Positions 19,035 through 36,256 are shown, numbered from the stretch's first letter. The stretch: DNA of 36,256 nt from Desulfobacteraceae bacterium (GCA_030613575.1 JAUWLP010000003.1:1-36256); one strand, 5' to 3'. A program made the numbers and translations. The notes: generated from the letters alone by a model not told the origin.

Positions 19035-19042
19035 AATATCGT

Positions 19043-19131
19043 CTCGTTAGGGGTGTTGATATCATCTGAGAGTCCGGGAAAGGACAACCCTTAACCACCT
19101 GATCAGGGTAATACCTGCGAAGGGAAACGGG
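19043..19131 (+). ncRNA. TPP riboswitch (THI box)
   Basis: GGGGTG...CTGAGA...ACCC...ACCTGATCAGGGTAATACCTGCGAAGGGA consensus with P1 CTCGTT/AACGGG, upstream of thiC. Confidence 0.95.
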
Positions 19132-19155
19132 CCTGCGATTCGGATTTGATTGTCC

Positions 19156-19192
19156 ATGCCGTTTTCCTGTTCGGGGAAACGGTATTTTTTTT
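19156..19192 (+). terminator. Riboswitch expression-platform terminator
   Basis: ATGCCGTTTTCC/GGGAAACGGTAT stem followed by a T-tract. The aptamer 3' strand GGGAAACGG can pair with the 5' arm as an antiterminator. Confidence 0.85.
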
Positions 19193-24391: not shown

Positions 24392-24419
24392 GGAAGGGCG
24401 GCGCAGAAGCCGCCCTTCC
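24392..24419. terminator. GC-rich hairpin between convergent thiE and PilZ genes
   Basis: Perfect 11-bp stem GGAAGGGCGGC/GCCGCCCTTCC with a 6-nt loop; no T-tract. Confidence 0.6.
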
Positions 24420-24476
24420 GGGCGCTAAAGATGTAGCCTCCTTGGCACATAAGAAAGGAAAAACCATAATAGCCCG

Positions 24477-24782
24477 TTAATAATATTTGACGCCAATGCC
24501 AAAACGAGAAGCGTCTTCGCTGCTCATTTCCTTCCACCATCTTACTTCAGCGAGGGATGCGGTTCGCAGCCCATTGCAGAGTTCTGGTTCAGAAGTATCA
24601 AAAGAACAGGTTTTCACCTTGAAGAAAATATTCGTCCCTTCTTTGAAAAATGAATCAGACTCAAAATACATGCCGCCTTCACCGCAGTTAAGCATTGTGG
24701 CATTAACGGTTTTATCTTTATTAAAACAGTTGCACATAACGGATGCTTCGCATTTATGGCGTTTATCGGCTCTTTTTTTCAT
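24477..24782 (-). CDS. Stand-alone PilZ-domain protein
   Basis: RADKR (RxxxR), NCGEGG (D/NxS/GxxG-like) and C-terminal GIGVKY; GGAGG RBS. Confidence 0.75.
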   Translation of the reverse strand: MKKRADKRHKCEASVMCNCFNKDKTVNATMLNCGEGGMYFESDSFFKEGTNIFFKVKTCSFDTSEPELCNGLRTASLAEVRWWKEMSSEDASRFGIGVKYY

Positions 24783-24787
24783 AGGGT

Positions 24788-25149
24788 ATAGAACCTCCTA
24801 ATTTTGCGGCGGATTCGTGGTTTAATCCATAGGTTGTTCCTACTTGCCCGATTTAAGGTACGGTCATATTAAGGATATTGTTGTAAGTCCCGAAGCAGTT
24901 TAAACAAGTCTGGTCATTTTGGGGATCTTCTTTCCAGTGCCCGTCAACAAGAAATTTATACTCGTAGCTTCCGGGAGGTAGAATCACAGCCTTATTCCAC
25001 ACCCCATTCCCATCCTTTTTCATGAGATGTTTTTTGGGATTCCAATTATTAAAATCTCCCATCAAAATGACCTCTTGAGCACCTGATAAATCAATGGAAA
25101 ATGTTACTTTTTTCCGCTTGATTTTCTTTTTTGATTTGACCTTTGCCAT
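24788..25149 (-). repeat. ~360-bp duplication (CBM48 gene plus downstream spacer/RBS), partner at 33353-33713
   Basis: Near-identical sequence from ATAGAACCTCCT through the start codon in both copies. Confidence 0.9.
24853..25149 (-). CDS. Glycogen-binding CBM48/AMPK-beta-like protein, copy A
   Basis: GDFNNW, LPPGSYEYKFLVDGHW..DP...N.FG..NN; ATG 25149 after GAGGAGG. Confidence 0.88.
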   Translation of the reverse strand: MAKVKSKKKIKRKKVTFSIDLSGAQEVILMGDFNNWNPKKHLMKKDGNGVWNKAVILPPGSYEYKFLVDGHWKEDPQNDQTCLNCFGTYNNILNMTVP

Positions 25150-25217
25150 GCAATACCTCCTCATGTAAAATTGCTTCGAGATTTTGTGTCATGTTCAATA
25201 AAATAAGCTAATATCAA

Positions 25218-25356
25218 ATTATATTTCAATCTGTCCATAGAGTAGTAGCTTCATTTTGATGGTGAGAACTCCTATGGGGCGGGGATTTATCCCGCGCAAT
25301 CGGGAGAAAAACTGATAAGATAAGTTTTTGTGGGCAGGCTTATTTTTTCCACGGAT
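25218..25356 (-). promoter_or_regulatory. Repeated promoter cassette, copy 1
   Basis: TGTCCATAGAG...GGGATTTATCCC...CAATCGGGAGAAAAACTGATAAGATA...CAGGCTTATT; minus-strand TATAAT at 25218-25223. Confidence 0.8.
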
Positions 25357-25439
25357 TAAGCCAATCAACAAGGTGGATTTCCGGCTTATAAGTGTGATTA
25401 TCTATTGCTGTGTTTATCTTATACTACAATGTTGAGTGG

Positions 25440-25736
25440 CTATTCCGTAAATCCATAATGAAACATTTCGTATTCGGTTTTTCCCCCAAGCAAAGCATCC
25501 ATCTTATCTTGAGTTTCCTGTCTTTCCTTACTTAACAACCATTTTTCCCAGTATTCAGAGGACTTCCAGGTACTGATAACTAAAAACGTATCGGGTTTGT
25601 CGAGGCTTTTTAAGGTTTCACCAGAGATATAGCCTGACTGGTTTGTAGCAAGGACTCTCATTTGTCTAAATAGGGGTATCATTTCCTTTGCCTTGTTTTC
25701 CGGTACAATCCGTTTAATTAGAATTTTAACAGCCAT
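25440..25736 (-). CDS. Antibiotic biosynthesis monooxygenase (ABM) family protein
   Basis: ATNQSGYISGETL...FLVISTWKS.E.WEKW..S.ER pattern. Confidence 0.85.
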   Translation of the reverse strand: MAVKILIKRIVPENKAKEMIPLFRQMRVLATNQSGYISGETLKSLDKPDTFLVISTWKSSEYWEKWLLSKERQETQDKMDALLGGKTEYEMFHYGFTE

Positions 25737-25801
25737 TTTGTTCTCCTTTCATATAGCAGATTGATTTGGTTTTTATGTTTAAGCAAGATTCCTTATGGTA
25801 G

Positions 25802-26989
25802 TTATTCCTGATACACATGTGTCCTCGTTACCGGCAACGTATTGTCCAATCCTTTGGAGAAAAGAATCTGAAACAGGCGTAAATCGCCGTACATAAATCC
25901 TGCTGCCGTACTGTTTAAAAACAGACGCCATTGCCTCACAAATGCTCCATCAAACAATTTCCTTATTTTCTCTATATTTCCTTCGAAATTTTCTGCCCAT
26001 TTTTCGAGAGTTTTGGCATAGTGCAGCCGCAAATTTTCTACATCCAGGATGGAAAAACCGGTTTTTCCCATTTCTTGTACAATTTCGTGAAGAGTCGGAA
26101 TATAAGCCCCGGGAAAGATATAACTAAATGTCCAGGGATCGTCGATAGACGGGGTGTCTTTCCCAATTGTATGCAGCAGACCCAACCCGCTGGTTTTTAA
26201 CAAATCCGAAACTTTTTGAATAAAAGTAGGGATGAATCTTTTCCCTACGTGTTCCATCATACCTATGGAAACTATTTTATCAAATTTATCATCTAACTCT
26301 CTGTAATCCTGATACAAAACCTTAAGCTGATTTTGAAGCCCCAATTCTTTGATTTTACGATTGGCGTATTGGAACTGATTTTTCGATAGCGTAATTCCAA
26401 CTCCGGTTATGCCATATTTTCGGGCTGCATAGATAAGCATTCCGCCCCAGCCGCAACCAATGTCGAGAAGGGATTCATTCGGCTTGAGTAAAAGTTTGCG
26501 GGCAATATGTTCGTATTTGTTCAATTGTGCCTGTTCCAGAGAATCATCCGGCTTTACAAAATACGCACAGGAGTAAGTCATGGTCTTATCAAGATAGAGT
26601 GCATAAAATTCATCGCCCTTGTCGTAATGGTAAGAAATGTTTTTTTGGGCTTGTCGCAGGGTGTCGCTGTTTAGCAGCGAAAGGATAAGAAGTCGAAATT
26701 TTTGCCAGAAAGATAACCGGTACTCGTCAAAATCAATGGAGAATCCCAGACGAAAAAGTTTTAGAAGATCGTTCTCTATTTCCAGATCTCCCTTCACATA
26801 GGATTCTCCAAACCCTAAAAATCCTTTTCTGATGATTTTTCTGGCACAACTTTTGGTTTTCAGGCGTAATGTTACCTGTGGAAAGTTTCCGAAGCGTATG
26901 GCATCACCATCCCAGAATTCTATGGCAAAGCATGCCCTTGGGTCAGATTGATGCATCATTTGGGCGATATTTTTGATAACCTTTTTCAT
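25802..26989 (-). CDS. cfa: Cyclopropane-fatty-acyl-phospholipid synthase family methyltransferase
   Basis: HYD.G.EFY, MTYSCAYF, LDIGCGWGG, SIGMMEHVG and YIFPG. Confidence 0.92.
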   Translation of the reverse strand: MKKVIKNIAQMMHQSDPRACFAIEFWDGDAIRFGNFPQVTLRLKTKSCARKIIRKGFLGFGESYVKGDLEIENDLLKLFRLGFSIDFDEYRLSFWQKFRLLILSLLNSDTLRQAQKNISYHYDKGDEFYALYLDKTMTYSCAYFVKPDDSLEQAQLNKYEHIARKLLLKPNESLLDIGCGWGGMLIYAARKYGITGVGITLSKNQFQYANRKIKELGLQNQLKVLYQDYRELDDKFDKIVSIGMMEHVGKRFIPTFIQKVSDLLKTSGLGLLHTIGKDTPSIDDPWTFSYIFPGAYIPTLHEIVQEMGKTGFSILDVENLRLHYAKTLEKWAENFEGNIEKIRKLFDGAFVRQWRLFLNSTAAGFMYGDLRLFQILFSKGLDNTLPVTRTHVYQE

Positions 26990-27068
26990 ATGGCATAAAA
27001 AGGTTGTGATTAAAAGACTTGTGATTTCGTCAGGTTGTGGAATTTCCGAAACATTTAATTAATACCAG

Positions 27069-27230
27069 AATATAATTCATTTTGTCCATAGAGGCAATTC
27101 TTTATTTTGATGGTGTCAACCCCTATGGGGGCGGGAATTTATCCCGCGCAATCGGGAGAAAAACTGATAAAATAGATTTTTGTAGACAGGCTTATTCTTT
27201 CCACAGATCCACGTCGATAATTCCTAACCT
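27069..27230 (-). promoter_or_regulatory. Repeated promoter cassette, copy 2 (contiguous with the NarL gene 3' end)
   Basis: Same conserved blocks; -10 TATATT at 27069-27074; overlaps the last codons of the response regulator. Confidence 0.8.
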
Positions 27231-27869
27231 TGCGGCATATCGAACCAGCTCTAGTGTGCTGTGGATATTAAGCTTGCGCAAAATATTTGATCTGTGATTT
27301 TCAACAGTTTTGGGGCTGATGAAAAGTTTTTTTGCGATCTGTTTGGTGGAAAGGCCTTGTGCCAGTAACACCATGATCTCTTGCTCTCGGGGGGTCAGAG
27401 TTTCATAGGTGGCATCGGTTATCTTCGCCTCTTGTTCCGGAAATTGCATAAGCTTTTTAACCACCTTATGGGAAACAGAACTGTCCATAAAATACTCTCC
27501 CTTCAAGACAGTATCTATCCCCTGTAAAAGTCTTTCAGAGGCCGATTCCTTGACCACATATCCTGTGGCCCCGGCCTGAAATGCTTTAACAATATAATCC
27601 ACTTTGGAATGCATGGTGATAATCATGATACATGTTTTAGGCGATGCATTCTTAAGTTCTCGGGTCAGTTGAATGCCGCTTTGATCCGGCAAAGACATAT
27701 CCACCAGTGCCAGATCAGGCTTGAGTTCCCTCGCCATTTGAAGCCCTTCACGTCCGTTTCCCGCCTCCCCAATCACCTTAAACCTATCATTGCGTCCGAT
27801 GACCGCTTTGAGGCCTTCCCTGAAAAGGGGGTGGTCATCTATTATTAATATGGTTTTCTTATGAACCAC
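27192..27869 (-). CDS. NarL/LuxR-family response regulator
   Basis: ILIIDDHPLFREG, LVDMSLP and LTPREQE...KTVENHRSN HTH; start reassigned to GTG 27869. Confidence 0.93.
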   Translation of the reverse strand: MVHKKTILIIDDHPLFREGLKAVIGRNDRFKVIGEAGNGREGLQMARELKPDLALVDMSLPDQSGIQLTRELKNASPKTCIMIITMHSKVDYIVKAFQAGATGYVVKESASERLLQGIDTVLKGEYFMDSSVSHKVVKKLMQFPEQEAKITDATYETLTPREQEIMVLLAQGLSTKQIAKKLFISPKTVENHRSNILRKLNIHSTLELVRYAARLGIIDVDLWKE

Positions 27870-30102
27870 TCTTGTTGTCCTTATAAGGAAGCGTAATAGA
27901 GATCTTTGTGCCCTGCATGGGTTTTGATTGAATTTCCATTTTACCTTGAAGCAATTTAGCCCTTTGCTCCATGCTCCGAATTCCCATTCGTTTCTCTTCT
28001 GATAGGGTTGACAATCGTTTCTGAACATCAAAACCCTTACCATTATCTTCTATACGAAGAATAATATTAGGGAAAGCTGCAACCAGTCTGATGGTCACAT
28101 GGTCAGCGCCAGCGTGCTTTTTGATGTTGGTAAGACTTTCTTGAATCAAACGATACAGGTTGATTTCGGTGTCAAAATCCAGCTTTAAATTCTTCATGCC
28201 GGCGGAATGGAAATCAACATTTATTCCATTGTCCTCAGAAAAATCATGACAATACTGAAAAATGGTCTGTACAAGTCCCATTTCATCAAGAGCCGGGGGA
28301 CGTAAATCATATGAGACGTCCCGAACTGCTTTTATGGATTCTTGAAGCGTTCTTGACATTTCAGAAACTCTTCGCCTGATCTCGGGAGGTATCGCAGGCT
28401 GATGATCAAAAAGCGTTTCAAAGCCAATTTTTACCGCGGAAAGCTCTTGCGCCACGTTGTCGTGCAAATCACGAGAAATCCTCTGACGCTCATTTTCTTG
28501 GGATTTCATCAACTCGCGGGTGAGAGCATGAATCTGTTCTTCGGCCCGTTTTCGCTCGTTGATATTACGCAATGAGCCGACAATTTTTACAGGATTACCA
28601 TGCCTATCTCGTACCAGCTTTGCCGTTATCGAACAATAGGTTTGAGAGCCTTCTTTATCTATCATAAGCGCTTCATAGTCAGTAACTTTCCCTTTTTTCA
28701 GAAGTTCTTTTACCAATTCATCTCTATTTTTCGGATCAACATATATATCGGATAATGATTTTCCTATGATCTCTTCTCTTTTGTAGAACGAAACATCCTC
28801 TATCGAGGGGCTGGCTTCTAGAATTATTCCATCAAGGGTTACTTCATAATAAACATCCTGAATATTTTTAAAAATGTTGCGATATTTCTCTTCACTTTTC
28901 CTCAGAGCCTCCTCCGCCCGCTTTTTTTCGGTAATATCAGTAATAAATGCAAAGGCACCCAGAACCTCTCCCGATTTACCCCTGATTGTGGTGGCATTAA
29001 AATATGCTGGTAGGTTTTCACCGTTCTTTTTTTTCAAGGTAATTTCATAACTGCGATGGGCTGTGACGGATATCTTTGAGGTCTGTTCAATAAAAATCTT
29101 TCGGTTCTCATCATCAACGAAGTCAAAGGGTGTTTTGCCAATCATCTCATCTTGACTGTAGCCAAGCATTTTGGAAAGAGCCGCGTTGACTTCGATAGTT
29201 TTGAGTTCAGAATTTATCAGCCAGCATCCTTCCGATGTAATTTCCAGAAGGGTTCGGTGTTTCTCTTCGCTTGCTCTCAGCGCCTCCTCTCCTTGTTTCC
29301 GTTCGACAATTCTTCCCGTTAGCCCAGTAATAGCATTGATCAAATTCCTTTCTTCTCTAAGGAAAGGACCCTCATCAATTTCCGGTCTTTCTTCCAGGTA
29401 ATAAACCTCCAAAATACCGCTCGGTTCACCATGCACTTTAATATCGCCGACCTGCTTCCAAATTGTCTCCCGGAAATTTTTTGTTCTCCATTCTCGGCCT
29501 TGTATAATAACTCGTGCACAAGTTATTTCCGGATATTGCCACGAGGGGGGAATAAGATCAACTATCCCCTGAAGTATCTCCTCCAACGCAACATCCCGCT
29601 GCTCAACAAGATTGGCAATACCATAGAGGAAGTTGAGTTCCTTGACCCGTTTGCCAAGATCATTGGTCTTCTTCCGCAAGGCCTTCTCTACCTGCTCACG
29701 TTCTGTAACGTCGCGCCAGATGCTGATGACAACACCCGGCTCCTCATCCGCAACTCGTTCAAGGAGAGAAGCATTGACACTGAAATGGCTTACTTTGTTC
29801 TTTGTCGTCATCTCAAATTCGACATTACGGCAAAAACCTTCGAGTCGGACCTTCTTTTCCAGCTCAGACCAACGGTTCAAAGCATTGGCATTGAGTTGTT
29901 CAAGCCAGATGAACATACTGGTCTCTACGACATCCCGCCACTGCCGTCCAAAGAACGAGCAGAAGGTCTCATTGACTACGATAATAGTATGCGTCGAGTC
30001 CGTAATCACGATACCGTCGGCCGAGGCACGCAGCAGCGTCTCGAAAAACTTTACTGTCTGCCGGGTGGCTTCTAATTCGCCTTTCCTAAGTCGTTTGCTC
30101 AT
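27859..30102 (-). CDS. Cytoplasmic multi-PAS/GAF HisKA_3 sensor histidine kinase
   Basis: Three PAS/PAC repeats, a GAF-like PSWQYPEITCAR segment, ERQRISRDLHD H-box, QESLTNI and DNGKGF; no TM helix seen. Confidence 0.92.
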   Translation of the reverse strand: MSKRLRKGELEATRQTVKFFETLLRASADGIVITDSTHTIIVVNETFCSFFGRQWRDVVETSMFIWLEQLNANALNRWSELEKKVRLEGFCRNVEFEMTTKNKVSHFSVNASLLERVADEEPGVVISIWRDVTEREQVEKALRKKTNDLGKRVKELNFLYGIANLVEQRDVALEEILQGIVDLIPPSWQYPEITCARVIIQGREWRTKNFRETIWKQVGDIKVHGEPSGILEVYYLEERPEIDEGPFLREERNLINAITGLTGRIVERKQGEEALRASEEKHRTLLEITSEGCWLINSELKTIEVNAALSKMLGYSQDEMIGKTPFDFVDDENRKIFIEQTSKISVTAHRSYEITLKKKNGENLPAYFNATTIRGKSGEVLGAFAFITDITEKKRAEEALRKSEEKYRNIFKNIQDVYYEVTLDGIILEASPSIEDVSFYKREEIIGKSLSDIYVDPKNRDELVKELLKKGKVTDYEALMIDKEGSQTYCSITAKLVRDRHGNPVKIVGSLRNINERKRAEEQIHALTRELMKSQENERQRISRDLHDNVAQELSAVKIGFETLFDHQPAIPPEIRRRVSEMSRTLQESIKAVRDVSYDLRPPALDEMGLVQTIFQYCHDFSEDNGINVDFHSAGMKNLKLDFDTEINLYRLIQESLTNIKKHAGADHVTIRLVAAFPNIILRIEDNGKGFDVQKRLSTLSEEKRMGIRSMEQRAKLLQGKMEIQSKPMQGTKISITLPYKDNKSGS

Positions 30103-30152
30103 GGTAATTCCAATTTGCTTCTCTCTCAGGCATTAATAAATAATTCCCCAAC

Positions 30153-30211
30153 AAAGAAAAAACGAAAAGGCCCATACTTTTACACAGTTTATATACTGTA
30201 TATGAGCCTTT
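30153..30211 (-). terminator. Intrinsic terminator inside the kinase 5' leader
   Basis: Minus strand AAAGGCTCATA...TATGGGCCTTT stem (with G-U) followed by TCGTTTTTTCTTT, about 50 nt before the ATG. Confidence 0.65.
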
Positions 30212-30343
30212 ATCTATCACATAGGGTTACCCCCTGAATTTGGCTGTTATTATCTTATTTTTATGTTATTCTAATAGGTTATATATCATTTTGAATTGGG
30301 CCTTCAATTTCGTTTAGTCATGAACATTATAGATAAAAATATA

Positions 30344-30446
30344 ATTCTACAATAAAAAATTTATTACAGATTTAAAAAATTTTGTCTATAGGATAAAGTT
30401 CTTATTTGTATAGGAAAACATCCTAAAGATATAGGGAGTTATCCCG
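30344..30446 (-). promoter_or_regulatory. Putative kinase-operon promoter with three tandem TAGG-N7/8-CCYR boxes
   Basis: Boxes at 30389-30404, 30411-30425 (TAGGAAAACATCCTA) and 30432-30446, about 21 bp apart; minus-strand TAGAAT at 30344-30349. Confidence 0.55.
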
Positions 30447-30543
30447 AACTTGAATAAAATATTACAATGCCATACGGTTAATGGACAACAAAATATATCA
30501 TTCTGCCCTGGCTTTAAGGTTCTTGCCTCCCTTTGGCATGGTT

Positions 30544-30660
30544 TTTGGAATTTGATGCTTGAGATTTGGGATTTATTTGGAATTTGGTACTTGGAGTTTG
30601 GAATTTAATTGATCTTTGGCACCTGGAATTTGGGATTTCAAAAAACTCGTGAACGGTTAC
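30544..30660. repeat. Degenerate 7-bp tandem repeat tract (TTGGAAT-like) ending in TGAACGGTTAC
   Basis: TTGGAAT TTGATGC TTGAGAT TTGGGAT ... TTGGAAT TTGGTAC TTGGAGT TTGGAAT. Confidence 0.7.
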
Positions 30661-30701
30661 AAATGATCCTTAACCCGCTACACCCATCAGCACGATTGCT
30701 T

Positions 30702-30974
30702 CTAATTTTGTGCTAAATCGCGTTCATTTTCTCCGATAAAAATTAGGTTGCTGAGTTTCTTTAAGGAGCCAAAGTTCTTTTGCAACACATTCCTGCCGAA
30801 TGCATAAATGGTCCTAAGATCATTAGTATCGATAAAGATTTGATAAAAATTGGTTCCTTGATCTTTTATAGTATTGATCAATTCATATGCCGAAGTTCCA
30901 TCAAAATCACCATTCAGTTTCAGATGAAGACTGTCTCTGGTTTTATAAGATAAAATTTGAAAATTTGCAGCCAT
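30702..30974 (-). CDS. STAS-like small protein (anti-anti-sigma fold)
   Basis: LKLNGDFDGTSAYEL...IFIDT..L..I..FG; AAGGAG RBS. Confidence 0.65.
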   Translation of the reverse strand: MAANFQILSYKTRDSLHLKLNGDFDGTSAYELINTIKDQGTNFYQIFIDTNDLRTIYAFGRNVLQKNFGSLKKLSNLIFIGENERDLAQN

Positions 30975-31021
30975 TGCATATCTCCTTTAAATATTATTCT
31001 TGTTATTAGTTTTATTATCAG

Positions 31022-31223
31022 AGTGTAATTCACTCTGTCCATAGAGAGGAGGCTTCATTTTTATAGTGGGAACTCCTGAGGGACGAGAATTTATCCCACA
31101 CAATCGGGAGAAAAACTGATAAGATAGGTCGTAACCTTTTACGGGTTCAGAGTTTCACGGTTACGATACTTTTTGTAGGCAGGCTTATCCTTTCCACAGG
31201 TCCAGGTCGATAATATCTAACCT
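31022..31223 (-). promoter_or_regulatory. Repeated promoter cassette, copy 3, with NarL 3'-end relic and small insertion
   Basis: Same blocks; -10 TACACT; the relic reads RLDIIDLDLWKG* versus the regulator's RLGIIDVDLWKE*. Confidence 0.8.
31130..31165. repeat. Mini insertion with CGTAACC/GGTTACG inverted ends
   Basis: Absent from cassette copies 1 and 2 at the same position. Confidence 0.55.
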
Positions 31224-31302
31224 TTATTAATTGTGATGTACAGTACCCGTGACGTTCATTCGGATTTTTCGTAGATTCTTTTCTTAGCTTTTTCCCTTGG
31301 TT

Positions 31303-31533
31303 TCACTCGACAATCTCAAGTATTGCGCGTTTCTTTATTTTTGCAGAAGATGCATTTAAAATAGTCCGGATTGCCTGGGCAGTCCGGCCCTTTTTGCCGA
31401 TAATTTTTCCCAAATCTTCTTTGGCAACCTTCAACTCGAGCACCGAAGTCTGGTTCCCCACGACCTCCTCAATCACTACCTGTTCCGGATTGTCGACCAG
31501 TGCCGCAACAATATAACCGACTAGATCTTTCAT
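31303..31533 (-). CDS. khpA: KH-domain RNA-binding protein KhpA
   Basis: ALVDNPEQV...[20 protein letters not shown] (GxxG loop). Confidence 0.9.
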
Positions 31534-31686
31534 AGCGTTATCTCCTTTTCCATGTCAGTTCCCTTATCGTAAGATCTATATTTCCCCATGAGACGAATTT
31601 TCGATTTTCCGGAGATAATAATATTTTTTTAAAAAATCGTATCAACACCAGATTTTATAGTATTTTCCGGCCTCTTTTTAAATTTT

Positions 31687-33324
31687 TCAACGGGCTATCT
31701 GATAAAGTTCTGCAGGCCATTGTAGTTCAGTGGGCATCGGCTCATTTATATTTTTAACAAATTGTGCTTTTTTGCCGATATCTTTGCTCATGCCACGGAT
31801 TTCCGCGCTGTCCTTAATAATTAGCGGACGCTGAAGCATCTGTTCATAAAGATCTATGTAATGTTGCGCTGTGACCCTATGGTTGAATTTGGAAGCACTT
31901 TGTATCATTATCCGGTTGATTTGCCTTTCCTTCTCTTTAATCGGCAGCATATAAAAGTTCATTGCCTGATCAATAGCCCAGGATAGCCCGTTTGAGTCAA
32001 AAGTCCTAAATAGAAAGCCGTTGCCGGTTTTTCTATCTACATCCAGGTGGACGACTGTATCGTGAATCCCTCCGGTATCGTGGGCTATTGGAAGGGCCCC
32101 GTAGATTGCACCTATCATTTGGGGCAGGCCGCAAGGTTCAAAGCTTGAAGGCATCATAACAAAATCCGAGGCCCCATAGGCCAGACGGGCCAGACGTTCG
32201 TTGAAGTCGCATACTGCTATCCGGTCAGATAAATTATGAAATCGAACGATGTCTTTAAAATGCCTTTGAAACTCTCCGTCTGCTACAAAAACGATCTCAA
32301 GATTCTGCTTCCAGTAACGGGAAACTACTTTATAAAGTATCTCAGCAAGGAGCTGACATCCCTTTTGAACCGGATCCAGGCGCGAAGGCCAGAAGAAGAT
32401 GGGCACCCGTGTATTCTGAACCAAGCCTAAAGTTTTCTGAAGAATGCGTTTATTGGCCTTTTTCCCAAAAACATGGTTCGCTGCGGAATATTTACAGGGG
32501 AGGGCCTCATCAATGGATGGGTTATAGGAAGGGTCTGGAGCGTTTAGAATTCCATTAGCGCATCCGGCGTTTCTTTTGTTGGATAGCTCTCGTTGCATGG
32601 AGTTTTTTACAAAGCCGTGCCGTCCTTCAACCATCTCCTTCAGGAAGGTTGGACTTACAGTATTTACAAAATGGGCAGCAAAAACTCCGCTTGCAAGGAA
32701 ATCTACAGGAATGGAGTCTCTGGTATTTTCATAGTTGGACGGGTAATATTCAAAAAAAAGGTTCTTCCAGAACAAAGCGCTGTCAATACCCCTGTCCTCA
32801 ATTTCAGAAAGGAGGCTTTTAACAGTATGGATATTGTGAATAGTAAAAAGGCAAGGAATACCCAATCGTCTTGCCATGGCTGGAATCAGACCGGTCATCC
32901 AATCATTGCAATGGATAAGATCCGGCTGAACCTGGGGAACGATATTGTTGATAACTTCTCGCTGAAACGCTAATGAAATTTTAATTTTTTCAAACTCATA
33001 CTTGGAATAGATATGATTAAGATAAAAAAAAGTCCTGTCCTGGGCCAGGTGGATCCTTTCATCCGGTACGCTGTTTCTTATTCTGCTCAGTTCCCTTCTA
33101 ACAAGTGGAGACATATGACCGTTGAATATTGAACGGTAGTCCGGAAGAGCCACATGGACATCGGCGCCCTGACTATAAAGGGCATTTATTAGTGCAGCCG
33201 AGACATCTGCAAGCCCTCCTGCTCTGGCATTCAGGCAAATTGAATTCTTTACCATGCCGCTGGGAAGATAGGCTACTTCAGGTGTCACAATAAGAACGCG
33301 AGGGTTGGTTGTAGGACTGGTTAT
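31687..33324 (-). CDS. glgA: Glycogen synthase-like GT5 glycosyltransferase (start codon non-canonical or mutated)
   Basis: PRVLIVTPE, RAGGLADV, HCNDW, TIHN, QKG and PSSFEPCGL. The frame stays open upstream of the track GTG (33288) to ATA 33324 and ATT 33351. Confidence 0.8.
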   Translation of the reverse strand: MTSPTTNPRVLIVTPEVAYLPSGMVKNSICLNARAGGLADVSAALINALYSQGADVHVALPDYRSIFNGHMSPLVRRELSRIRNSVPDERIHLAQDRTFFYLNHIYSKYEFEKIKISLAFQREVINNIVPQVQPDLIHCNDWMTGLIPAMARRLGIPCLFTIHNIHTVKSLLSEIEDRGIDSALFWKNLFFEYYPSNYENTRDSIPVDFLASGVFAAHFVNTVSPTFLKEMVEGRHGFVKNSMQRELSNKRNAGCANGILNAPDPSYNPSIDEALPCKYSAANHVFGKKANKRILQKTLGLVQNTRVPIFFWPSRLDPVQKGCQLLAEILYKVVSRYWKQNLEIVFVADGEFQRHFKDIVRFHNLSDRIAVCDFNERLARLAYGASDFVMMPSSFEPCGLPQMIGAIYGALPIAHDTGGIHDTVVHLDVDRKTGNGFLFRTFDSNGLSWAIDQAMNFYMLPIKEKERQINRIMIQSASKFNHRVTAQHYIDLYEQMLQRPLIIKDSAEIRGMSKDIGKKAQFVKNINEPMPTELQWPAELYQIAR

Positions 33325-33416
33325 GATCTGTTGCTCCTTTACTTCAGTAATAATAGAACCTCCTGATTTTTGGCGGATCCGTGGTTTAATCTATAGGTTG
33401 TTCCTACTTGCCCGGT

Positions 33417-33713
33417 TTAAGGCACGGTCAGGTTAAGAATATTGTTGTAAGTCCCGAAGCAGTTTAAACAAGTCTGGTCATTTTGGGAATCTTCTTTCCA
33501 TTGCCCGTCAACCAGAAACTTGTACTCGTAGCTTCCGGGAGATAGAATCACAGCCTTATTCCACACCCCATTCCCATCCTTTTTCATGAGATGCTTTTTG
33601 GGATCCCAATTATTAAAATCTCCCATCAGGACGACCTCTTTGGCATCTGATGAATCAAATGAAAAAGTAGCTTTTCGCCGCTTGATTTTCTTTTTTGATT
33701 TGACCTTTGCCAT
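33417..33713 (-). CDS. Glycogen-binding CBM48/AMPK-beta-like protein, copy B
   Basis: Same length as copy A (98 aa) and nearly identical; AAGGAG RBS. Confidence 0.88.
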   Translation of the reverse strand: MAKVKSKKKIKRRKATFSFDSSDAKEVVLMGDFNNWDPKKHLMKKDGNGVWNKAVILSPGSYEYKFLVDGQWKEDSQNDQTCLNCFGTYNNILNLTVP

Positions 33714-33750
33714 TATTCATCTCCTTAAAAATAATGATTATCCATAACGT

Positions 33751-33927
33751 TCATTTTACCACTACCGGATTTACAGTATCAAATCCTGAACCTGTATGAA
33801 CATCTCCAAGGATTTCCATTCGTTTTGATAACACCTGGATCTCACACTCGGGAAATAATATATGCATCTTTACAATCAACATATCTACTCTTTCAGGATC
33901 ATCGCTTAATATAATTATTTTCTTCAT
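33751..33927 (-). CDS. 58-aa small protein (receiver N-terminus-like, LFPECEI)
   Basis: Manually translated: MKKIIILSDDPERVDMLIVKMHILFPECEIQVLSKRMEILGDVHTGSGFDTVNPVVVK*; GGAGG RBS. Confidence 0.65.
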   Translation of the reverse strand: MKKIIILSDDPERVDMLIVKMHILFPECEIQVLSKRMEILGDVHTGSGFDTVNPVVVK

Positions 33928-33951
33928 GTTAAGCCTCCCCTCCCTATCGGT

Positions 33952-34182
33952 TCATTCTTCAGGATAGTGGCTTTTCAGACAGTACGGTCGCCAGCAACAA
34001 TCTATTTGGTCACAATATTCCTCTGCCCTTAGGAAACAATCAAAGTTTCCTTCAACACGCTGAACGCTTCTAATCAGGGCTGTAATATCGAGGTAAGCAT
34101 CTTCAACACCTCGATTTTTGGTGTCAATTGATGTTTTCCCTGTTTCTTTATTGGAAACACTTATGCTGTCTTGATCTGACAT
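33952..34182 (-). CDS. Small Cys-rich protein (SAP-domain-associated Zn-binding-like motif)
   Basis: LIRSVQRVEGNFDCF...CDQIDCCWRPYC. Confidence 0.65.
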   Translation of the reverse strand: MSDQDSISVSNKETGKTSIDTKNRGVEDAYLDITALIRSVQRVEGNFDCFLRAEEYCDQIDCCWRPYCLKSHYPEE

Positions 34183-34236
34183 GATTTGTATATACTATAT
34201 CTTTTTGGGTTTGTAGAAATCGAATAACGGTTTCTC

Positions 34237-34337
34237 TTCAATTTGTCCATAGAGGGGGGGCTTCAATTTGATGGTGGAAACTCCTAACAGGCAGGAATTT
34301 ATCCCACCTACTTGGGAGAAAAACTGATGAGATAGGT
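34237..34337 (-). promoter_or_regulatory. Repeated promoter cassette, copy 4 (-10 degenerate)
   Basis: TTCAATTTGTCCATAGAG...GGAATTTATCCC...GGGAGAAAAACTGATGAGATAG. Confidence 0.75.
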
Positions 34338-34346
34338 TGTAACCGT

Positions 34347-34607
34347 CTACAGGTTCAGGAGTTCTTTGATCTTCAGAGCGTTTTTAGGTGCATGCCCCAT
34401 CGCGTCGTTGTCAAAGTAAACATAAGTATCTACGTCCCATTTTTTTATCTTTTCAGCCCAGTTATTAATTTCGTTTTCTGAGTATTCGGACACATATAGT
34501 TTTCTTGATCCATGCAGACGAATATAGATAAAATTAGATGTTACTGCTTCAAGATAGGCAACAACCACTGACGGAGAGCGCCCCACACCTGCATTGCAAT
34601 ATACCAT
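34347..34607 (-). pseudogene. Chimeric relic: dual-specificity phosphatase CX5R loop fused to DUF72 C-terminus
   Basis: VYCNAGVGRSPSVVVAYL (CX5R) joined in frame to TSNFIYIRLHG...YVYFDNDAMGHAPKNA (DUF72 end). Confidence 0.75.
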
Positions 34608-34676
34608 TATTCTATGGTCTTTGATTCCTCCTGACTTTAATAAATGAAGTTATGGGAAAGGTGATTCTGCATCTTC

Positions 34677-35048
34677 CTACTTGGCGGGATTGTTTTCTAA
34701 TAACGCGGATATCTTTTGCTTTAGTTCATCGGCGGCAGAGTGGCTCTTGAGCAAATATCCATCAGCTTGAGAAAGACGGTGATCAAACAGGTAATTGTGG
34801 TATGGAGCAATGATAAGCACCGGGAGACTTGGTTCTTGTATTTTAATGTTACGTAAGACATCCCATACGAGAAATCCATACTTCAGGTAAAGGTTAAGGA
34901 GCACTACATTAGGTTTAAATGATAAAATGTTTTTACTAACTGACTCGATATCATCCGTGACTTCTATTCTGTGGCTTTCACCAGCAAGCCCTTCTCTGCA
35001 TAAATTCTTCGCCCACTCCTGATCATCTATGATAAGTATGTTTGCCAT
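34677..35048 (-). CDS. Single-domain receiver protein with Asn at the phosphoacceptor position
   Basis: ILIIDD...VVLLNLYL (Asp to Asn)...IIAP...LLKS. Confidence 0.8.
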   Translation of the reverse strand: MANILIIDDQEWAKNLCREGLAGESHRIEVTDDIESVSKNILSFKPNVVLLNLYLKYGFLVWDVLRNIKIQEPSLPVLIIAPYHNYLFDHRLSQADGYLLKSHSAADELKQKISALLENNPAK

Positions 35049-35108: not shown

Positions 35109-35117
35109 AGGCATTGA

Positions 35118-35178
35118 TTTCACTCGACAATCTCAAGTATCGTGCGTTTTTTTGTTTTTGCAGAAGATGCATTTAAAA
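35118..35178 (-). pseudogene. 3' fragment of a khpA copy
   Basis: Matches 31301-31361; reads LNASSAKTKKRTILEIVE*. Confidence 0.8.
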
Positions 35179-36102: not shown

Positions 36103-36252
36103 AAAATCACAAATTCCAAGCACCAAATTACAAATAAATCTCAAATTCCAATATTCAATGACCAAAACCTTCCAGGGCGAGACATTGTTTGGATTTTCGA
36201 ATTTCGGTCATTGGAAATTGTTTGTAATTTGTAATTTGATATTTGGGATTTC
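36103..36252. repeat. Inverted heptamer-repeat element (AAATYNC arm / GNRATTT arm)
   Basis: AAATCACAAATTCCAAGCACCAAATTACAAAT...CAATGACCAAA mirrored by TTCGGTCATTG...TTTGTAATTTGATATTTGGGATTT. Confidence 0.7.
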
Positions 36253-36256
36253 AATA

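Follow-up and report, generated by a model that had tools for sequence, protein, structure and literature searches.

A candidate promoter-control module linked to a PAS kinase and a NarL-type regulator in Desulfobacterales

Introduction

NarL-type response regulators use inverted-repeat sites upstream of sigma-70 promoters. In mycobacteria, the kinases of one regulator of this family, DevR (DosR), are of the HisKA_3 type with GAF sensors, DevR autoregulates its operon, and its regulon includes a small heat-shock protein and universal stress proteins. Promoters can also spread on repeat elements, as do the Correia promoters of Neisseria, which are borne on miniature inverted-repeat transposable elements (MITEs). 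To our knowledge, no known regulon of the NarL/GerE family uses a fixed promoter module of ~95 bp, such as the one that we describe here from a Desulfobacteraceae bacterium, in a stretch of 36,256 nucleotides (GCA_030613575.1, JAUWLP010000003.1:1-36256) that we call the window. The literature on Desulfobacterales and Desulfobacteraceae regulons, stress promoters and promoter duplication, searched without supplements, yielded no published description of the module, and that on the order Desulfobacterales no promoter-module regulon of the NarL/GerE type.

A report on DevR of Mycobacterium tuberculosis (PMC3177182) states that DevR recognizes GGGACT in both halves of a palindrome, that two boxes or more are needed, in helical phase and with centres for example at -42.5 and -63.5, and that its regulon includes the storage-polymer synthase gene tgs1. 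An initial annotation of our window had noted a sequence recurring at 25218, 27069, 31022 and 34237 and had taken it for an activator-dependent promoter copied from the 3' flank of a NarL-type regulator gene, with a structured RNA or a mobile unit as the alternative. Based on our analysis we propose, with a probability of roughly 0.7, that every copy constitutes a full promoter-control module which acts as double-stranded DNA and would be under the control of that regulator.

Results

Copies were located with R1, a sequence-only covariance model built from 86 aligned copies (alignment A4). The four copies first noted were recovered by a repeat scan and by R1 (E 4e-28 to 7e-23), and R1 found eight copies in the source genome, adding one at 30359-30451 that had been missed and three on other contigs (Table 1); BLAST with copy 2 as query had recovered a fifth, on another contig. 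The repeat scan delimits overlapping direct-repeat families at 25175-25379, 27026-27231, 30979-31224 and 34237-34358, and the four copies can be aligned over ~115 nt of the minus strand, the one on which all neighbouring genes are encoded. The block TGTCCATAGAG is present in all four, as claimed initially, although its near edge lies 52-94 nt, and not 62-94 bp, from the next minus-strand ATG. One copy in the window precedes the kinase-regulator operon and another, copy 2, follows the regulator stop. Orthologues of the diverged copy at 30359-30451 are present in two related genomes (L055, L075).

The 3' third of the module reads as a sigma-70-type core promoter, with TGGACA or TAGACA as the predicted -35 element, a spacer of 16-18 nt and GATAAT or TGnTAAT as the predicted -10 element, whose register is approximate. 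TGGACA is found in 74 and TAGACA in 12 of the 86 copies, each matching TTGACA at five of six positions, and the hexamer is contained in the TGTCCATAGAG block, where the initial annotation had seen no good -35. In an information profile of the 86 copies the GACA of the -35 element is kept in 85-86 and the CTAT preceding it in 84-86, the T/A of the -10 block is kept in 71-72, and the spacer columns carry little information; the remaining blocks of the profile are GGGAYAAATTCCC (inverted repeat 1, IR1), AGG..TT..CC (inverted repeat 2, IR2), AAAATGA, CTCTATGGACA and a weaker T-G-n-T-A. The same order holds in copies from distant families, in which TGGACA or TAGACA is followed by 16-18 unconserved bases and then by GATAAT, TATAAT or TAATAA, with TATAAT at 16-nt spacing in L247 and L250. 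In a pattern scan copy 3 matched as TGGACA-16-GATAAT (10/12) and copy 1 as TGGACA-16-GATATT. The aligned hexamers TATAAT, TATATT and TACACT, which had been proposed as the -10, do exist, but they lie in the unconserved spacer and are lost in diverged copies, where GATAAT or TGnTAAT is kept instead, and they are therefore not the -10. Readings of the blocks as sigma-54, sigma-32 (for a CCCCAT stretch), ECF-type or IHF sites were dropped because spacing or conservation did not fit.

The core stands 30-100 nt ahead of the start codon of the gene that it serves. That this organism uses canonical promoters is indicated by a positive control elsewhere in the window, TTGACA-17-TAAAAT, which ends (19034) 5 nt before a thiamine pyrophosphate (TPP) riboswitch. 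The riboswitch itself (19039-19142, plus strand, 60.1 bits) is followed by a strong, terminator-like hairpin at 19156-19185, ahead of thiamine genes. RNA data consisted of Logan contigs from four RNA runs, which cover small shares of the stretch and show neither transcript starts nor strand; one of these fragmentary contigs, of 208 nt and from the gene for a 90-aa protein, ends ~10 nt beyond what we propose as the -10 of copy 3.

Upstream of the core lie two inverted repeats of the GGGA...TCCC type, IR1 centred at ~-86 and IR2 at ~-66 from the proposed -10 of copy 1, so that in copy 1 and in the alignments their centres are ~20 bp, or two helical turns, apart. They correspond to two of the three boxes 20-21 bp apart that the initial annotation had drawn; the third, at ~-107, occurs in this genus only. 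In IR1, GGGAYAAATTCCC, the GG is present in 86/86 and the CC in 83-84/86 copies with palindromic pairing in 91% of cells, and IR2 is weaker. Between the repeats and the core, AAAATGAA at -56 to -49 of copy 1 holds, at ~-56 to -50, the AAAATGA block, which stands at a constant 39-40 nt from IR1 in all nine regulator-adjacent copies measured, and CTCTA lies just ahead of the -35. The nearest clear repeat being centred at ~-66, no site abuts or overlaps the -35 element, and the stretch near -46 is merely C/T-rich and varies by gene class. As phased, palindromic boxes in a module linked to a NarL-type regulator, IR1 and IR2 are good operator candidates, as had been predicted. A stretch related to the ~40-nt insert ahead of copy 3 (Table 1), CTGAACGGTTAC-like, is found at ~34331-34360 on the minus strand before copy 4 and before many copies in relatives; the AACC-N7-GGTT stretch ahead of these two copies could represent an additional site for a protein or a short insertion.

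Table 1. Positions of the module copies, their parts and the genes and relics associated with them
Feature	Position	Strand	Basis	Remarks
Module copy 1	25205-25317	minus	R1, E 5.8e-28	precedes CBM48 and PilZ genes
Copy 1, -10 block	25209-25216	minus
Copy 1, -35 TGGACA	25232-25237	minus
Copy 1, AAAATGAA	25250-25257	minus
Copy 1, IR2	25261-25273	minus
Copy 1, IR1	25281-25293	minus
CBM48 gene after copy 1	24853-25164	minus
PilZ gene after copy 1	24477-24782	minus
Decayed regulator-tail relic	25340-25379	minus	score 21	ends LVDWLNPWKK, stop; upstream of copy 1; no regulator open reading frame attached
Module copy 2	27054-27169	minus	R1, E 2.8e-27	directly follows regulator stop codon
Copy 2, -35	27083-27088	minus
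Copy 2, -10 block	27060-27067	minus
Cyclopropane fatty acid (CFA) synthase gene	25802-26989	minus	Pfam	63-70 nt downstream of copy 2
ABM gene	25440-25736	minus	Pfam	target of copy 2
NarL/FixJ-family response regulator	27192-27872	minus	Pfam, translation	receiver and GerE helix-turn-helix; C-terminus DLWKE; stop 27192-27194
Sensor kinase, cytoplasmic type	27859-30102	minus	Pfam, NCBIfam	PAS domains, then HisKA_3 and HATPase
Diverged module copy	30359-30451	minus	R1, E 5.8e-8	257 nt upstream of kinase start
Diverged copy, TAGACA	30383-30388	minus
Diverged copy, TAATAA	30361-30366	minus
Module copy 3	31009-31121	minus	R1, E 4.3e-28	38 nt ahead of 90-aa gene
Copy 3, -35	31036-31041	minus
Copy 3, -10 GATAAT	31014-31019	minus
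90-aa gene	30702-30974	minus
Insert of ~40 nt, AACC-N7-GGTT inverted repeat	31129-31169	minus	four-copy and 75-copy alignments	between regulator relic and copy 3 core
Regulator-tail relic, 13 codons and stop	31185-31226	minus	score 49 against regulator tail	RLDIIDLDLWKG, stop; two stop codons precede; upstream of copy 3
Module copy 4	34228-34329	minus	R1, E 6.8e-23	model positions 2-104 only
Copy 4, -35	34234-34239	minus
76-aa gene	33952-34182	minus		target of copy 4
58-aa gene		minus		target of copy 4
Second CBM48 gene	33417-33713	minus	Pfam	target of copy 4
GlgA-like gene	31687-33288	minus	Pfam	target of copy 4
Module copy, other contig	C74:5873-5981		R1
Module copy, other contig	C49:13702-13803		R1
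Module copy, other contig	C140:2496-2590		R1

Elements of this size, occurring in several copies and always co-oriented with the gene downstream, are also known as riboswitches and cis-acting leader RNAs, and the module could accordingly act as RNA, that is as a 5' leader, a riboswitch or a leader bound by a protein (for example CsrA-like, as it has several GGA motifs), with its promoter further upstream. Its length and conservation would suit a riboswitch aptamer, the GGGA...TCCC repeats can be drawn as hairpins in which IR1 pairs as well as stated above, some RNA-library contigs extend into modules, and the copy on contig C74 is followed by a hairpin with no open reading frame nearby. However, the modules gave no Rfam match at the gathering score or at E up to 10, the sole match in the window being the TPP riboswitch, and ARAGORN found no tRNA or tmRNA. 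RNAalifold returned -2.86 kcal/mol with 3 pairs for 73 copies and 0 pairs for 84 order-wide copies aligned to the model; a TCCC-N8-GGGA hairpin shows no covariation (232/500 shuffles reach its score), and the pairs that rank highest in mutual information reflect paralogue classes and not helices. Mismatches show no consistent strand preference, as the flank of IR1 shows T-G in the genus and AGGA...TCCC variants elsewhere show A-C. Further, no conserved promoter lies upstream, neither a terminator nor a platform sequestering the Shine-Dalgarno sequence follows the element, and its 3' end has both blocks and the spacing of a promoter. Since consensus fold, covariation and Rfam match are all wanting, we reject a structured RNA, the first of the alternatives named initially, and consider action as RNA in any form improbable. 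Folding of just the four window copies had at first suggested hairpins, which larger alignments did not bear out.

The protein that would read the module is encoded beside it. The closest solved relatives of the regulator are VraR, NarL and DevR, and its recognition helix aligns with those of all three. Paralogues of 60-74% identity occur across the order, each directly followed by a diverged module and usually then by a small gene of the MISSPC type; the commonest gene after a regulator-adjacent module encodes a protein of 64-81 aa starting MISSPCKNC (for example L225:806-1420, minus strand, and relatives). Co-occurrence was scored in one sample of 151 genomes of the order, with E<=1e-85 as cut-off for a regulator orthologue: 54 genomes have both module and regulator, 5 the regulator only, 13 the module only and 79 neither, an odds ratio of 66, although kin are not independent and the Fisher value thus overstates the association. 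In the family, outside the genus, the presence of module and regulator agrees in 20/21 genomes, including joint loss in three genera, and reading by hand showed that at least 27 genomes have a co-oriented copy within ~300 nt after the regulator stop, often as the sole copy of a single-copy genome. The module is the cis element shared across a regulon that is coupled to the PAS-HisKA_3 kinase and its NarL/DevR-family regulator.

It is conceivable that another factor reads the same promoter module and that the two-component system just belongs to the regulon. The repeats and AAAATGA/CTCTA would then be bound by, for example, a nucleoid protein, a global regulator or a sigma factor of alternative type with an extended -35; conservation is strongest in AAAATGA and CTCTATGGACA and not in the palindromes, the spacing within the second repeat varies, and 13 genomes have a module and no regulator orthologue at the cut-off given above. 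The presence, among the genes served, of one with weak STAS similarity and of several for single receiver domains hints at partner-switching; the STAS-like one is the 90-aa gene, the product of which gave a weak anti-sigma-factor-antagonist match (TIGR00377, E 0.025) far under the family cutoff. Against a different reader stand the odds ratio, the agreement within the family and the position of a copy directly after the regulator gene, and the GGGA-type half-sites fit recognition by a DevR-like helix-turn-helix. We therefore regard it as unlikely, though the most plausible of the alternatives, and retain the NarL-type regulator as the presumed reader.

How the module spread is recorded in remnants of the regulator gene. 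Copies 1 and 3 keep its last codons, as had been claimed: the relic RLDIIDLDLWKG sits downstream of a KH-domain gene (31303-31533) with no regulator open reading frame attached, and the open frame that ends at the stop of the decayed copy-1 relic amounts to 27 codons. At the DNA level (repeat D4) the regulator tail at 27177-27231 matches 31170-31224 at 89% and 25325-25379 at 60%. At least five other genomes (L025, L048, L053, L034, L057) share the copy-1 relic, again ahead of copies of the CBM48 type, and hence it is old, and L065 too carries a regulator-tail relic, with an in-frame stop. The ancestral unit consisted of the regulator gene, the module and then a target gene, and in some lineages the module was multiplied by segmental duplication starting inside the 3' end of the regulator gene, as the codon relics attest. 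Copies later exchanged flanks: a DUF72 tail precedes copy 4 here but a copy of the 90-aa type in L056, L059, L060 and L061, and in RNA-library contigs from related strains the modules are joined in a different succession. Contigs that lead from 35049 back to 31300 suggest a different gene order in related strains. The 86-aa open reading frame at 34347-34607 (minus strand) that abuts copy 4 matches only the last third of DUF72 and a scrap of a dual-specificity phosphatase domain, and is probably a truncated gene.

Thus the initial view of a promoter cassette spread by duplication together with the 3' end of its regulator gene is borne out, but not that of a regulon built locally and recently, because the arrangement of a module directly behind the regulator gene is ancestral for much of the order and orthologous copies precede identical genes throughout the genus. 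The other alternative named initially, a non-autonomous, MITE-like element that happens to carry an outward promoter, would account for the many copies (up to 24 per genome), for flanks shuffled between genomes, such as the DUF72 tail, and for the other arrangements in RNA-library contigs, and like the Correia promoters the module places the same promoter sequence many times before unrelated genes. Unlike them it shows no sign of transposition and spread from the regulator locus; the repeat scan, which did not extend to target-site duplications, found no terminal inverted repeats flanking any copy, the left edge is ragged, being a regulator relic, the 40-nt insert or neither, and the copies hold orthologous positions before the same genes across the genus. 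Random orientation relative to genes had been named as a finding that would speak against a promoter: 65 of the 86 copies lie on the same strand upstream of six recurrent gene classes, at 25-93 nt with few further away, and 0 of the 86 on the opposite strand. Lacking terminal repeats and opposite-orientation copies, the module is most unlikely to be a transposing element.

The six classes are CBM48 (17 copies of the 86), the MISSPC-type small protein (13), GlgA-like (11), the 90-aa protein (9), CFA synthase (8) and a small MxDQDC protein (7). The small target proteins belong to no Pfam or NCBIfam family and their Atlas clusters are labelled 'hypothetical protein' and are mostly from Thermodesulfobacteriota; the 76-aa and 58-aa proteins of the window show no similarity to the MISSPC-type pair. 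We also surveyed the first open reading frames downstream of 27 modules in three distant genomes, which encode receiver-only proteins (5/27), cold-shock proteins (3/27), HisKA_3 kinases (2/27), Hsp20 (1/27), a universal stress protein (1/27), enzymes, a transporter and TPR proteins (6/27 together) and proteins of no family (9/27). Genes for cold-shock, Hsp20, universal stress and receiver-domain proteins stand behind modules in other families of the order. The theme of the regulon is storage and stress survival.

BLAST found 2-7 copies in 15/15 genomes of the genus, far more than chance would give, and copies in three further genera of the family, but detected the family of modules in only 23/61 relatives, so that a profile model was required. 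With R1, 5-19 copies were found in 10/10 genomes of the genus, matches in 36/41 genomes of the family, and 1-24 copies each in 67/151 genomes (49/109 genera) of the order; in a phylum-wide sample 8/151 genomes matched, two of these within the order, and the module is thus rare outside it. A pattern scan gave at least 128 loci; the true matches among those listed were named as Desulfobacterales or as metagenome-assembled genomes of Desulfobacteraceae, and chance matches fell in unrelated taxa.

Discussion

We propose that dimers of the phosphorylated regulator would bind IR1 and IR2 cooperatively from the same side of the DNA and, once bound, would control RNA polymerase at the core promoter, that of their own operon included. 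As the core lies near consensus, the activator dependence assumed initially is not indicated, and the regulator could just as well repress or modulate transcription as activate it.

Several observations weigh against this proposal. A near-consensus core is unlike that of an activator-dependent promoter, copy 4 has a poor -10 region, and sigma-70-like matches in 24400-34700 do not exceed those in shuffled sequence (29 vs 23.9 +/- 4.7), so that the promoter call rests on conservation and not on the scan. The distance between GGG and CCC of IR2 varies between lineages from ~5 to 8 nt, which is awkward for a rigid dimer, and nearly the whole 95 bp are conserved, including AAAATGA and CTCTA, for which no contact is known, exceeding what a regulator site usually needs. 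Module and regulator are discordant in 18/151 genomes, kin are not independent, and adjacency by itself would lead to co-inheritance. RNA contigs other than the one ending near the -10 of copy 3 run into modules; examples are a joint from 26988 to 27076 and the loose ends 25365 and 31129. Finally, a GGGA-N5-TCCC stem with a spacer hairpin scores marginally above shuffles (4-9/500 reach its score); the second of these helices pairs in just 67% of cells, and such marginal values arise without structure.

The promoters of DevR are the closest known architecture, the binding of the regulator to the module being inferred. In both systems a NarL-family regulator is paired with a HisKA_3 kinase, autoregulation of the regulator's operon would be common to both, and in both the targets include small heat-shock and universal stress proteins and a storage synthase, tgs1 there and GlgA-like here. 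The half-sites start with GGGA in each case and the boxes stand in tandem and in phase, ~20 bp apart in the module and ~21 bp according to the DevR report. The differences are nonetheless considerable: the two regulators are no more than remote relatives (E 9e-32 across the full length), the GGG and CCC of IR1 are 7 nt apart, unlike in the Dev box, the nearest repeat at ~-66 does not overlap the -35 of a core that is near consensus, AAAATGA and CTCTA are extra invariant blocks, the whole 95 bp are kept and copied as a unit, and the sensor is of PAS and not GAF type. The operators of NarL/NarP, VraR and other proteins with a GerE helix-turn-helix are read by the same protein family, yet their half-site sequence and spacing differ from those of the module.

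Tentatively, and with slightly less than even confidence, we suggest that much of the Desulfobacterales, including uncultured seep and vent lineages, shares a hard-wired module of ~95 bp which defines a DosR-like survival regulon, run by the PAS kinase and the NarL-type regulator and growing and shrinking by copying and pasting of whole modules. If so, survival in these bacteria would draw on glycogen, cyclopropane lipids, Hsp20, cold-shock, universal stress and small Cys-rich proteins, regulons would grow by copies that often include the regulator gene or its tail instead of binding sites arising point by point, and the regulon of any member could be read directly from its genome. The gene content (glycogen synthase, glycogen-binding modules, CFA synthase, Hsp20, cold-shock and universal stress proteins) points to a programme of dormancy or energy limitation, which would bear on the starvation survival of sulfate reducers in seep and vent sediments, and the signal of the PAS kinase becomes testable. 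For organisms mostly known from metagenomes the module offers a handle on the regulon that needs nothing beyond sequence, R1 finding 1-24 target promoters per genome. It is also a natural example of regulon growth by duplication of whole promoter-operator units, with codons of the regulator left behind as a fossil.

Some further features of the locus and its relatives deserve mention. The copy on contig C74 (L003 = G000:C74, 1500-1660) follows a branching-enzyme-like gene, and after it come a GC-rich hairpin, ~430 nt without an open reading frame and, as the next gene, one for a universal stress protein (2028-2492). Short TTTGGAATTTG-like units form a second repeat family, in direct and inverted arrays, at 30543-30641, 36104-36254 and ~1700-1760 of L003, thus also after the C74 module copy, and relatives have a comparable insertion that separates the module from cfa. 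A 65-nt repeat of 92% identity is shared by the 3' end of the KH-domain gene (31297-31361) and an intergenic position (35114-35178). A direct repeat of 300 nt and 91% identity, 24803-25102 and 33367-33666, represents two paralogous stand-alone genes for glycogen-binding CBM48 proteins, each of which stands downstream of a module copy.

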